DNA of 4,419 bases from a virus. Taxonomy: Duplodnaviria; Heunggongvirae; Uroviricota; Caudoviricetes. Below the pieces are notes generated by a model. That model saw only the letters and a program-made list of their open reading frames with translations. It did not search any database and was not told the DNA's origin. Positions 1-4,419 of the stretch are shown piece after piece. Position 1 is the stretch's first letter. Each line of letters opens with the position of its first letter. Made by a program: the position numbers and the translations under genes. The stretch lies in IMG/VR virus record IMGVR_UViG_2571042636_000010; one strand, given 5' to 3'.

Positions 1-393
1 GCACTGTGCGTCATCAATGAATGCGGCCTGAGTGCGTTCTATCAGGCGGAGATTTGTCAGAACTTCTGACTCTCTTACGGGGTAAGGGGTAATCAGGTAT
101 TTGTTCTGCAATTCGGCGATAATGATGTATTGCTGTAGCTCCGAGCCAATAATATGAATAAGGTGTCCAATGTCAGATAAATTCAGTCTGGTGGTTGGTT
201 GTGTTTTGAGAACCGTTAGTTCAGCATCCTGTTTTTCGATAATTTCGGCTGCTTCGGCGGTTACTCTTGCTATCATCATGGCTGTGGTAGCAGGCCCAAT
301 CATTCCTGCATTTGTTGCATCCTGAATGGCTCTGTTTGCGGTCTTCGATATATTTTTTAGCGCAGTTACAATGCCTTTTTCTTTTGCGTTCAT
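1..393 (-). CDS. hypothetical protein, first 131 codons only (gene continues past window start)
   Basis: Minus-strand frame is open for all 131 codons from ATG at 393-391 to position 1, with no stop. GGAGA Shine-Dalgarno lies 7 nt upstream (reverse complement of 401-405). Translation starts MNAKEKGIVTALKNISKTANRAIQGCNNAGMIGPATTAMMIARV. Absent from the ORF track because it has no in-window stop. No family recognised. Confidence 0.5.
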   Translation of the reverse strand, partial: MNAKEKGIVTALKNISKTANRAIQDATNAGMIGPATTAMMIARVTAEAAEIIEKQDAELTVLKTQPTTRLNLSDIGHLIHIIGSELQQYIIIAELQNKYLITPYPVRESEVLTNLRLIERTQAAFIDDAQC

Positions 394-486
394 TTTTGTA
401 TCTCCATTATTTACGTGCGTGAATACCTCCGCTAATTCGGATGGTTTTCACGTTTTCTTATTTAATCTGGTGTTTTATTTGTGCTG

Positions 487-600
487 TTATTCGTCAGAGA
501 AAAAACGCTCAATCTTTTTCACTGAATGAATAATTCGCATAATGCCAATAGCGCAGATCACCGAAATAATCAGAACAAGCCATGACATAAATATGCTCAT
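487..600 (-). CDS. 37-aa hydrophobic small protein (putative single-pass membrane peptide)
   Basis: ATG at 600-598 overlaps the TGA stop (599-597) of the upstream 80-aa gene as an ATGA junction. Hand translation gives MSIFMSWLVLIISVICAIGIMRIIHSVKKIERFFSDE, with TAA stop at 489-487. About 18 hydrophobic residues are followed by a charged tail. Too short for the ORF track. Confidence 0.35.
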   Translation of the reverse strand: MSIFMSWLVLIISVICAIGIMRIIHSVKKIERFFSDE

Positions 601-839
601 ACGATATTCCCCAGTTTATACGGTTCAATGCGTTCTCCGCATTCTGCAGCACAGACGAGTTCGGAAAGTTCGTTAATTGCATCCAAATCGTCAGCGTAAA
701 AAGCCACGTCATAAAGGCTTCTGATTGCCCTTGCTAATGAATCATGGGCTGCGTGTTCTGCCTGGGCCCCTGATGTGTTTAGGCGAAAATAAAAACGCTC
801 AAGTGCTTTGTTGACAAGAGCTTTATATTCTTTGTCCAT
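597..839 (-). CDS. hypothetical small protein (80 aa from internal ATG)
   Basis: Part of track ORF 597..917. ATG at 839-837 follows the TAA stop of the upstream gene (852-850) by 10 nt, with an AAGGG Shine-Dalgarno-like motif 6 nt upstream. The longer start at ATG 917 would overlap the upstream gene by 68 nt. Begins MDKEYKALVNKALERFYFRL. No family recognised. Confidence 0.5.
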   Translation of the reverse strand: MDKEYKALVNKALERFYFRLNTSGAQAEHAAHDSLARAIRSLYDVAFYADDLDAINELSELVCAAECGERIEPYKLGNIV

Positions 840-1640: not shown

Positions 1641-2108
1641 ATGGAATTAGATGCTTCTGTGTGTCTGCGAATTTTTGAAAAACACTACGAGCGAGTTGCT
1701 AAAACCTATCGTGAGGTGCTGGATAAAGAAACAGCCAACTCAGCATTTGTTGCTACTCGAGCATTGATTCTCCTTAAATTGGATTTGTTACTTGTCGAGT
1801 ATCGAAGAAATATTGATTCCAAGTGCGTAGTCCTCTTCGGGAAAAATGTGCTTTATCATTATCTTTTCACCCAAAAGGGCGTTTCATTGTCTGATGCCAA
1901 AAATATGTGTCTCCATGACATACTTATTGTTCTCTGGAATGATATTAATGCATATGTAATACCAGAGCATGTATCCGAGCGTATCCAGATTCTTTATAAG
2001 TACGAGCTCTCATCTCCAGTGCCTGATTTAAGTTATGAAGATGAAAGTCTGTTGCATTTTAAGGATTCTGCTTGGGATTTTTATCCTGCCGATACACGAC
2101 TGAATTAA
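1641..2108 (+). CDS. hypothetical protein, 155 aa, AT-rich accessory (moron-like) gene
   Basis: ATG at 1641 is preceded by AAAGGAG (1629-1635) with a 5-nt spacer, the strongest ribosome-binding site in the window. Frame is open to TAA at 2106-2108. My hand count over several 60-nt lines gives roughly 35-45% GC, against roughly 50-60% in the integrase and leftward genes. The track ORF 1458..2108 begins at a TTG and the extension overlaps the minus-strand gene, so the internal ATG is preferred. No family recognised. Confidence 0.6.
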   Translation: MELDASVCLRIFEKHYERVAKTYREVLDKETANSAFVATRALILLKLDLLLVEYRRNIDSKCVVLFGKNVLYHYLFTQKGVSLSDAKNMCLHDILIVLWNDINAYVIPEHVSERIQILYKYELSSPVPDLSYEDESLLHFKDSAWDFYPADTRLN

Positions 2109-2671: not shown

Positions 2672-2953
2672 TCAAAGCCCCAGCCACAGCAACCATGCGT
2701 CTCGTTGTTCTTTCGGGCGTGCAAAGAATGCTTCGCGCATCGCTTTGTTGAACTCCGGGATGTAAACCCAGTTTTCAGCGCGTGAACGCAGTGCATTAGG
2801 GTTCTGCCATTTCACAATTGGAAGTTTGCCGTCAGAAATCATGTCGCTCACAGCAGATGCTGGTTTACCGATCATCTCGGCGAATTTGGGGCCGGGGACG
2901 GCATCAATTGGATAACCAATATTGATATATCGCTCTAGTTCCCTGTCTCTCAT
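2672..2953 (-). CDS. cox: Cox-like excisionase / early-promoter regulator (P2 Cox family)
   Basis: Translation ...FAEMIGKPASAVSDMISDGKLPIVKW...ENWVYIPEFN...ARPKEQRDAWLLWLGL matches my recollection of phage P2 Cox (FAKLIGK...GKLPV...WVYLP...RPKEIRDGWLMWLGL) in order and spacing. It is divergent from the repressor gene, as in P2. Start is either ATG 2953 or TTG 2959; GGAGA lies 5 nt before the TTG and 11 nt before the ATG. Confidence 0.7.
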   Translation of the reverse strand: MRDRELERYINIGYPIDAVPGPKFAEMIGKPASAVSDMISDGKLPIVKWQNPNALRSRAENWVYIPEFNKAMREAFFARPKEQRDAWLLWLGL

Positions 2954-3048
2954 GTGCAATAATTCTCCGTTTAGGGCTATTGGCGGCTTGTATCCGCTTA
3001 TAGCGGTGATGTGTATTGGTAGAAACTTCCACCCTTTAGGAGAATGTT
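2954..3048. promoter_or_regulatory. putative immunity switch region (divergent C / cox control, Pe and Pc-type promoters and operators)
   Basis: An ~90-bp gap between the divergent cox and C starts. The minus strand carries a TATAAG -10-like hexamer (2997-3002) about 40 nt upstream of the cox start. TATTGG occurs twice in direct orientation (2978-2983 and 3014-3019). A short dyad CCGC..GCGG sits at 2994-3006. Assignment rests on the P2/186 face-to-face promoter architecture; exact sites are not established. Confidence 0.35.
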
Positions 3049-3372
3049 ATGGTAGAGACTTCCACCCAGTCAAGAGGGATAGGGGAAAAAATCCGCATGA
3101 TTAGAGATGCTGAAGGTCTTAGCAGACAGCAATTCTTTGAATTGACGGGGATTCCTGCGGGGACGCAAAAGTATTATGAAACTGGACGGGTTGAAAAAAT
3201 AGGTAGTGATATTTTGCTAAAGATCACGCTTCATTCTCAATTTTCTAAATATGCCCTGTGGCTTATGACCGACAATATTGCGCCAGAATCAGGGCAGATT
3301 GCCCCGCCTCTCTCCCCTGATGGGCACGAAAATGCAGTAATGTCGCGCCGCTCCGTCCGCAAAACTGGTTAA
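3049..3372 (+). CDS. C: phage immunity repressor, P2 C-type (short helix-turn-helix repressor)
   Basis: ATG at 3049 with AGGAG (3036-3040) 8 nt upstream; TAA stop at 3370-3372. The 107-aa product contains LSRQQFFELTGIP (helix-turn-helix-like) and YALWLMTDNIAPESGQIAPPL, matching my recollection of P2 C (LSRQQLADLTGVP ... YTLWFMTNQIAPESGQIAPAL). Lies upstream of and co-directional with the integrase, as in P2. Confidence 0.75.
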   Translation: MVETSTQSRGIGEKIRMIRDAEGLSRQQFFELTGIPAGTQKYYETGRVEKIGSDILLKITLHSQFSKYALWLMTDNIAPESGQIAPPLSPDGHENAVMSRRSVRKTG

Positions 3373-3438: not shown

Positions 3439-4419
3439 ATGACGATTAAGAAGCTCGAAGGAGGGCAATATCAGGTGGATATTTACCCGCGTGGGCGTGA
3501 AGGCAAGCGCATACGCAGACGTTTCAAGAAAAAACAGGAAGCTATTCTGTTTGAGCGGTATGTGATGGCTAACGTCGAGAAAAAAGAATGGCTCGGCGCA
3601 AGCGTTGATCGCCGTACGCTTGGGGAGTTGCTGGAAATCTGGTGGCTGTTGCATGGTCAGACACTGGAGAACGGTGCAATCGAAAGACAACAACTGGAAA
3701 AGACAATCAGGGCGCTTGGTAATCCTGCCGTTAACCGGCTTGATAAGCGTGAAATTGCCAGGCATCGCGGTGAACGGCTTACAGATGGTATTAGCGCATC
3801 AACCATTAACCGCGATGTTTATCGTTTGTCCGGTATGTTTACCGCATTGAGTAAGCTTGGAGAATTTCGCGTTGAAAATCCCTGTCATGGTTTGCAGCCG
3901 TTACGGGAGGCACAGCCACCAATGACTTACCTTACAAAACAGGAAATCGCCCGATTGCTGGAATTTCTGGAGGGTGACAATCGCCGGGTGGCATTGCTGT
4001 GTCTCAGTACCGGGGCGCGGTGGAATGAGGGAAGCACGCTGCGGGCTGAGCAGGTCAATCATGGACGTGTGACCTTTCTGAAAACGAAGAACGGCAAAAA
4101 AAGGACGGTGCCGATTTCGGAAGTTCTGGAGCGGGAGATCAAAACCTGCGAGACGGGGCCGTTGTTCGATGTGAATTATGCTCAGTTCCGTGAGCAATTA
4201 CGGCGTGTAAAACCTGATTTACCACGGGGGCAGTCAACGCATGTGCTTCGCCACACGTTCGCCAGTTGGTTCATGATGAACGGAGGAAACATTATTGCGC
4301 TTCAGCAAATTATGGGTCATGCCAGCATTAAACAAACGATGGTTTATGCGCATCTTGCACCGGATTTTCTCCAGCACGCGATTACGTTAAATCCGCTTGG
4401 TGGAGGTCTGGGGATTTGA
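3439..4419 (+). CDS. int: site-specific tyrosine recombinase, P2/186-family phage integrase (complete, 326 aa)
   Basis: ATG at 3439 with GGAGG (3426-3430) 8 nt upstream; TGA stop at 4417-4419, the last bases of the window. The C-terminal catalytic region HVLRHTFASWFMMNGGNIIALQQIMGHASIKQTMVYAHL carries the tyrosine-recombinase R..H-x-x-R..Y signature, with LSTGARWNE upstream. The N-terminus MTIKKLEGGQYQVDIYPRGREGKRIRRRF resembles P2-type integrases. Confidence 0.9.
   Translation: MTIKKLEGGQYQVDIYPRGREGKRIRRRFKKKQEAILFERYVMANVEKKEWLGASVDRRTLGELLEIWWLLHGQTLENGAIERQQLEKTIRALGNPAVNRLDKREIARHRGERLTDGISASTINRDVYRLSGMFTALSKLGEFRVENPCHGLQPLREAQPPMTYLTKQEIARLLEFLEGDNRRVALLCLSTGARWNEGSTLRAEQVNHGRVTFLKTKNGKKRTVPISEVLEREIKTCETGPLFDVNYAQFREQLRRVKPDLPRGQSTHVLRHTFASWFMMNGGNIIALQQIMGHASIKQTMVYAHLAPDFLQHAITLNPLGGGLGI

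Follow-up and report, generated by a model that had tools for sequence, protein, structure and literature searches.

We analysed a 4,419-nt stretch of phage DNA (hereafter the window), which is the int / C repressor / cox early region of a P88-like prophage (Xuanwuvirus, Peduoviridae, in the P2 family) and shares 85-88% identity with P88-like phages by megablast (Table 1). The gene order in phage P88 is int, C, cox, DUF4761, an orf, DUF4754, gp07, more small genes, and the replication endonuclease gene A, which is the early-lytic (cox) side of a P2-type switch. The gene studied here (the peptide gene, with 37 codons) lies on the cox side of the C/cox switch, and in homologous loci it is found upstream of the replication gene A; the first-pass annotation had placed it in the early region of a prophage, and the P2-family gene order bears this out. 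The segment from 400 to 1000 of the window is present in 1344 of 5426 complete E. coli genomes, including O157:H7 and O25b:H4 (ST131) strains.

Table 1. Features in the window, with positions counted from its first letter.
Feature	Position	Strand	Evidence or remark
Tyrosine integrase gene	3439-4419	+	
Helix-turn-helix repressor gene	3049-3372	+	
Cox-family gene	2959-2672	-	
DUF4761 gene	1498-1148	-	
95-aa gene	1137-850	-	phrog_3800
DUF4754 gene, 80 aa, upstream translational partner	597..839	-	PF15946, E 8e-47; phrog_2549
Shine-Dalgarno-like GGGG	609..612	-	last base of the Leu-76 codon and the Gly-77 GGG codon of DUF4754
ATGA overlap of DUF4754 stop and peptide start	597..600	-	ATG 600-598, TGA 599-597
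Peptide gene, 37 aa, P88 gp07 homologue	487..600	-	ATG 600-598, TAA stop 489-487
Codons 3-21, predicted transmembrane helix, IFMSWLVLIISVICAIGIM	538..594	-	Kyte-Doolittle; AlphaFold2; invariant residues
Codons 22-37, predicted basic amphipathic cytoplasmic tail, RIIHSVKKIERFFSDE	490..537	-	hydrophobic moment; invariant residues
Conserved intergenic stem-loop 3′ of the peptide gene	408..442, core TCCG/CGGA 418-431	-	folding z-score -2.7
Next gene (phrog_9338), start at 393, leaves the window	1..393	-	

There is a variable cargo slot between cox and DUF4761, which holds a 1.2-kb insert in the window and different genes in other loci. Two genes were recognised in the insert: one on the opposite strand (1641-2108, plus strand), which encodes an ECs1072-family phage-associated protein (NF033230, E 5e-32), and one on the minus strand (2059-2670), which encodes a 203-aa protein without a family. 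A PADLOC scan of the cargo slot genes gave no defence match. Comparison of the homologous loci places the peptide gene in the invariant core of the region, outside this insert; and from the arrangement in P88 we infer that a transcript from the cox promoter would reach the peptide gene across the cargo.

Several minor features of the region were also observed. A 45-nt stretch (1530-1575) contains a GC-rich inverted repeat (GCCGGG...CCCGGC) followed by a T-rich run on the plus strand, and is 93-96% identical to short segments of Yersinia phage vB_YenM_42.18 and Salmonella phages SEN4 and SEN5; the remainder of the window had no megablast match to these three phages. In some P88-like prophages (L027-L029, positions 2757-3105) the cargo 3′ of the peptide gene includes a gene for a Band_7 (SPFH/HflK-like) membrane protein. 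The region was also found at about 87% identity in NZ_JBQPOM010000071.1 (L003), a record titled Vagococcus sp. WN89Y, which is a Gram-positive genus; this assembly is probably contaminated or mislabelled.

The 37-codon frame and its conservation

Read from its ATG on the minus strand (600 to 487), the 37-codon frame gives MSIFMSWLVLIISVICAIGIMRIIHSVKKIERFFSDE; the coordinates, the 37-aa product and the ATGA overlap with the upstream 80-aa gene are exactly as first described, according to the ORF listing and the minus-strand reading. The upstream frame, which starts from the ATG at 839, matches the Pfam family DUF4754 end to end. Since the window contains 82 ORFs of at least 20 aa, a 37-codon ORF is unremarkable by itself, and it is conservation that lifts this one above chance. 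The GGGG element near the end of DUF4754 would pair with the 3′ end of 16S rRNA at a 7-nt spacing from the peptide ATG, with a predicted duplex energy of -5.5 kcal/mol (-3.8 to -6.6 for the neighbouring genes); and a purine-rich element is found 3-7 nt 5′ of the peptide ATG in all variants (GGGGAA, GGGAG, AGAGGTGG or GAAGGGGAA). The ATGA junction, together with a Shine-Dalgarno-like element inside the last codons of DUF4754, fits an arrangement for termination-reinitiation coupling; judging from the same GGGG element, independent initiation of the peptide is possible as well.

We compared 24 intact loci from genomes and phages and 80 intact loci from IMG/VR. All of them (24/24 and 80/80, 104/104 in total, counts that are not independent, as the loci are related prophages) retain the ATGA junction and stay open for 30 codons or more after it, so the frame and junction proved conserved in related prophages, a check that the first-pass annotation had proposed. 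DUF4754 stays at 80 codons in all 104, and the full 37- or 41-aa form of the peptide is present in 97 of them. Where DUF4754 is only 35-36% identical to the copy in the window, the peptide is 54-62% identical and retains its ATGA start.

Loss of the frame in homologues, or absence of a synonymous bias there, had been named as grounds for rejecting the gene. When the comparison was run, the peptide frame had a pN/pS of 0.23-0.32 (pooled pairwise Nei-Gojobori), similar to that of DUF4754 (0.20-0.37), against 1.2-2.3 for the other two sense frames over the same bases, which serve as an internal control. Variable sites are most frequent at the third codon position (21, 13 and 31 sites at positions 1, 2 and 3, p = 0.02), and only the peptide frame lacks stops in all the loci. 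In one antisense frame pN/pS is 0.35, yet this frame contains a stop in most sequences, and we interpret its low value as an effect of the codon structure of the sense strand. On these between-frame comparisons, the 37-codon frame is a genuine, selectively maintained coding gene.

A longer ORF on the same strand (509-712, 67 aa) uses the third sense frame and covers the end of DUF4754 along with most of the peptide gene; it was rejected as a candidate gene, with a pN/pS above 1 and stops in homologues. It is found in the databases only as part of frameshifted fusion proteins, namely "DUF4754" proteins of 103-128 aa (e.g., P0020, P0022, and P0036), and these fusions look like frameshift or assembly artefacts.

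Altered and lost alleles of the peptide gene are also found. A 1-nt deletion in codon 4 occurs in 72 blocks of the contig collection, where gene callers start at an ATT instead and so rescue a 34-aa ORF. Phage Chuche and one IMG/VR contig have a stop at codon 31; in phage PhiR44_2 and in four IMG/VR contigs, a 1-nt change in the 3′ T-run lengthens the product to 45 aa. In an O111 remnant, codon 7 has been joined to the replication gene by a deletion, and prophage 503458 contains a degraded copy. These natural truncated and frameshifted alleles, some of them in deposited phage genome records, indicate that the gene is accessory and dispensable for phage growth. The T-run itself (CGTTTTTTC, window 490-510, codons 32-34) is a site of recurrent 1-nt changes (L013 and four IMG/VR loci). 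The tail of the 45-aa variant is unrelated to the normal one: it is Asn/Thr-rich and extends into the spacer. With no fewer than four distinct tail sequences found, this variant either persists or arises repeatedly.

Predicted product and downstream stem-loop

The Kyte-Doolittle hydropathy of the product (19-residue window) peaks at 2.68 over residues 3-21, which gives it one stretch of at least about 19 residues above the hydropathy threshold for a membrane helix. There is no charge before this helix, and four basic residues (R22, K28, K29, and R32) follow within 11 residues after it; the 41-aa variants end in KRRK. With this charge bias, the positive-inside rule predicts that the N-terminus is out and the C-terminus is in. 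The single predicted membrane-spanning stretch and the charged tail, which had both been noticed at first reading, are thus confirmed by hydropathy and by the four K/R residues after the helix. AlphaFold2, which was given a small family alignment, predicted one continuous helix over residues 2-35 (pLDDT 88). Residues 22-35 of the tail have a hydrophobic moment of 0.7-0.84, which makes the tail a predicted amphipathic helix. Taken together, we consider it very probable that the gene is translated and that its product is a tiny single-pass inner-membrane protein.

Among the 46 unique 37-codon sequences, ten residues are invariant (F4, S6, W7, L10, I18, G19, I20, I23, I24, and K28) and three more are nearly so (I30, E31, and F34), and the changes are concentrated at positions 5, 8, 9, 15, 25, 29, 32, and 36. 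The variability of the tail follows a helical period (peak at 100 degrees, shuffle p = 0.026) and spares the hydrophobic face; for the membrane helix, this test gave no significant result (p = 0.17). Within the membrane helix the polar or small residues S6, C16, and G19 are almost invariant, and such conserved residues inside a membrane helix suggest that it may make specific helix-helix contacts.

The peptide gene is followed by a 94-bp spacer that contains a conserved stem-loop (RNA sequence CGUGAAAACCAUCCGAAUUAGCGGAGGUAUUCACG). Its core, AUCCG(C)...(G)CGGAGG, is kept in 16 of 16 unique loci, including the most divergent ones, and three sequences share one compensatory change from C-G to U-A. 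Lacking a U-run, the stem-loop does not qualify as a canonical terminator. The downstream genes differ between loci, and the switch occurs just 3′ of the stem-loop.

Annotation and spread of the family

The first-pass annotation described the peptide as unlisted, which holds only against a 60-aa ORF cutoff and is otherwise largely wrong: NCBI has the exact 37-aa peptide, named "hypothetical protein [Escherichia coli]", in a 33-variant cluster, and wherever a RefSeq genome that we examined had an intact copy (STEC, ST131, and O157:H7), PGAP had annotated it as a 114-nt CDS that shows the 4-nt overlap as well. Phage P88 gp07 is labeled "membrane protein", and the homologue in phage 569R5 "putative membrane protein". 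That the gene is easily missed was partly right, since it is absent from the annotation of the Citrobacter phage Shae_phiSM record and of the RefSeq record of phage 520873; but NCBI, PGAP and the P88 record (as gp07) do carry it. P88 gp07 (YP_009113050.1) and the PGAP homologues (e.g., WP_000021715.1 and WP_000021655.1) are 37 aa long and 86-89% identical to the peptide in the window; they occupy the same site after DUF4754, with the same 4-nt overlap, and their differences are allelic only.

We searched the peptide against Pfam, PHROGs, NCBIfam, and PADLOC and found nothing significant (the best E-values, in Pfam and PHROGs, were 0.065-0.23); NCBIfam had no match for the 37-aa form, and a PDB sequence search with the peptide profile gave no match either. 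When 1.84 billion representative proteins were searched exhaustively with a profile, 19 hits came out at E ≤ 0.001; each is a variant, a fragment or a frameshifted form of the same peptide, from this lineage only. A word-indexed protein search with a 41-aa variant found only five close relatives, and a scan of genome contigs with a single DUF4754 protein found only two loci. The named carriers are almost all E. coli, with a few Salmonella, E. albertii, and Citrobacter, and the peptide is accompanied by DUF4754 in every locus examined. We found no functional study in the literature on DUF4754, DUF4761, the peptide, P88, or 186 fil/dhr.

The peptide is therefore uncharacterised but already annotated, and it belongs with the small membrane proteins encoded in early operons of phages, a familiar group. 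As a finding from a genome scan it is modest, since the ORF is already in databases and its anatomy is usual for a small phage membrane protein. Nevertheless, this gene, which has neither a family model nor a name, occurs in roughly one in four complete E. coli genomes, O157:H7 and ST131 strains among them; small membrane proteins that phages make early are well known to yield host-inhibiting activities and tools to probe essential membrane machines, and a conserved, plainly selected gene with a fixed partner makes a cheap and well-defined experimental target.

Possible function and related systems

The explanation that we favor is that the peptide is an accessory early-lytic inner-membrane protein, coupled to DUF4754 and directed at the host; taken as a whole, we hold it with roughly even confidence. 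The two-residue N-terminus would be periplasmic, residues 3-21 would form the transmembrane helix, and residues 22-35 would form a basic amphipathic helix on the cytoplasmic side. The gene would be transcribed with the early-lytic (cox-side) genes, and the ATGA junction and the internal Shine-Dalgarno-like element would link its translation to that of DUF4754, so that both are probably made together. The product would be a non-essential accessory protein that makes specific contacts at the inner membrane, and it may be a membrane-bound partner of DUF4754. By analogy with fil and dhr, which occupy the same position in the early operon of phage 186, the phenotype that we think likeliest is a transient block on a host membrane process (division or an envelope function) after induction or infection, a proposal we advance tentatively.

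Phage 186 is the best positional precedent that we found for such a host-directed role. Its early operon runs apl, cII, fil, dhr, the terminator tR1, non-essential genes, and A, in which fil encodes a 75-aa cell-division inhibitor and dhr a 66-aa protein that depresses host replication; the P88-type operon runs DUF4761, an orf, DUF4754, the peptide gene, the conserved stem-loop, variable non-essential genes, and A. Like fil and dhr, the peptide gene is thus a small non-essential gene that ends the first segment of a P2-family early-lytic operon, before a stem-loop, and that stem-loop is a positional analogue of tR1, here without the U-run of a terminator. Phage division inhibitors such as lambda Kil and 186 Fil lie in early-lytic operons, as the peptide gene does, and a division inhibitor was also among the first suggestions for it; Pfam and PHROGs gave no hit that would tie the peptide to a characterised inhibitor. 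The translations of Fil and Dhr, unlike the peptide, have no hydrophobic stretch long enough to span a membrane. The C-terminus of Fil, FLIIRIVHFVIKGVK (fil is at L031 2953-3180), resembles the conserved motif of the peptide, IMRIIHSVKKIE, but not to a statistically significant degree: BLASTP gave no alignment of the peptide with Fil, and hhalign aligned only six residues (E 0.097, probability 0.6%), so this likeness (IIRIVHFVIK against IMRIIHSVKK) was set aside.

Other systems resemble the peptide in anatomy. Bacillus phage SPO1 gp56, the product of an early phage gene, and Caulobacter SidA are small single-pass membrane proteins that inhibit cell division; both are very small membrane proteins that arrest a host membrane machine, and we liken the peptide to them by size and predicted membrane location. 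TatA and the Pf3 coat protein have the same predicted layout as the peptide (N-terminus out, a transmembrane helix, and a basic or amphipathic cytoplasmic helix). Membership in the TatA family was considered and rejected, since the match of the 41-aa variant is sub-threshold (E 0.013, 15 bits against a cutoff of 104) and the genomic context is unrelated.

Several other readings compete with a host-directed early-lytic protein. The peptide could be a superinfection-exclusion or defence factor, which would keep the DNA of other phages from entering or shield the infected or induced cell in another way. T4 Imm and HK97 gp15 are small membrane proteins that block DNA entry, and P22 SieA is also a superinfection exclusion protein; the peptide is a small predicted membrane protein of a temperate phage, its gene is dispensable, with natural loss alleles, and it is very widespread in E. 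coli, all as expected of such a factor. However, the gene is on the early-lytic (cox) side, whereas lysogens express the genes for the repressor and the integrase, so that exclusion acting in lysogens fits poorly; unlike typical defence cargo, it is part of the invariant core and lies outside the variable cox-DUF4761 insert; and it matched no defence family in PADLOC, PHROGs or Pfam, so that we regard exclusion, which was among the first suggestions for this peptide, as rather improbable. The lysis-lysogeny decision offers a different role, that of a modulator of a host membrane protease or of quality control that tunes this decision, as lambda CIII acts on FtsH. An early operon and a conserved amphipathic helix predicted at the cytoplasmic face of the membrane would suit a modulator of this kind, but the peptide has no sequence similarity to CIII or to such a family (in Pfam, PHROGs, and NCBIfam), no CII-like factor is annotated in P88, and P2-type switches rest on mutual repression by C and Cox; we consider this role very unlikely.

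A membrane-damaging toxin, either a type I-like stabiliser of the prophage or a holin- or antiholin-like lysis timer that collapses the membrane potential, is also unlikely, a little more plausible than a protease modulator and less so than an exclusion factor. The type I toxins Hok, Ldr, Fst, and TisB are shorter than 60 aa and consist of one hydrophobic helix with a charged tail (PMC8309996, PMC2887945), and the peptide matches them, as well as small holins, in both respects. Type I toxins are stand-alone loci under the control of antisense RNA, whereas the peptide gene lies within an operon and is linked to the conserved gene of another protein, its start codon overlapping the preceding gene of a same-strand gene string in every locus. 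In addition, the window has no match to an antitoxin RNA family in Rfam (known families, E ≤ 1), antisense promoter-like sites number 10 against 7.0 ± 3.0 in shuffles, which is not above expectation, there is no terminator-like site on the plus strand, and P88 has a separate hok/gef gene. As for a holin, P88 has its own, gp30, next to the endolysin gp31 in a late holin/endolysin/DUF2570 cassette at 17.9-18.6 kb, about 15 kb from gp07 at 2.9 kb. The small-toxin and holin-like suggestions of the first-pass annotation thus both lose ground. Least probable of all, if only slightly below protease modulation, is that the frame is untranslated or functionless and owes its conservation to linkage, to recent spread of the prophages, or to constraint on an RNA or DNA element. 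The compared loci are indeed related and loss alleles are tolerated, but the synonymous bias is specific to the peptide frame and as strong as in the neighboring Pfam gene, the frame survives divergence to 54% identity of the peptide and about 35% of its neighbor, and the Shine-Dalgarno-like element and ATG are retained in all intact loci. An Rfam search of the whole window gave no match at E ≤ 1, so the RNA-element explanation has no support.

Within the favored reading of a host-directed early-lytic membrane protein, DUF4754 and the peptide might form a previously undescribed two-part early module, in which a soluble three-helix protein, held at the membrane peptide or acting through it, would stop a process at the inner membrane of the host (division, envelope synthesis or transport). 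We regard this extension as doubtful; if true, the module would act in a quarter of sequenced E. coli strains, including the O157:H7 and ST131 lineages. AlphaFold2 predicted DUF4754 as a three-helix bundle (pLDDT 91), and a Foldseek search of this model against the PDB found only generic helical bundles (E > 2) and gave no functional lead. One peptide allele was found behind both 78%- and 36%-identical alleles of DUF4754, which indicates that recombination separates the two genes and argues against a tight allele-specific co-evolution; any physical partnership would thus rest on residues that are invariant across DUF4754. Furthermore, the ATGA of a 33%-identical DUF4754 on the Klebsiella pneumoniae phage-plasmid CP052639 (L010 2001-2515) leads into a soluble 92-aa protein instead, so DUF4754 can do without the peptide. 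This 92-aa protein also starts with MSIF, which is either a remnant of a shared junction or chance.
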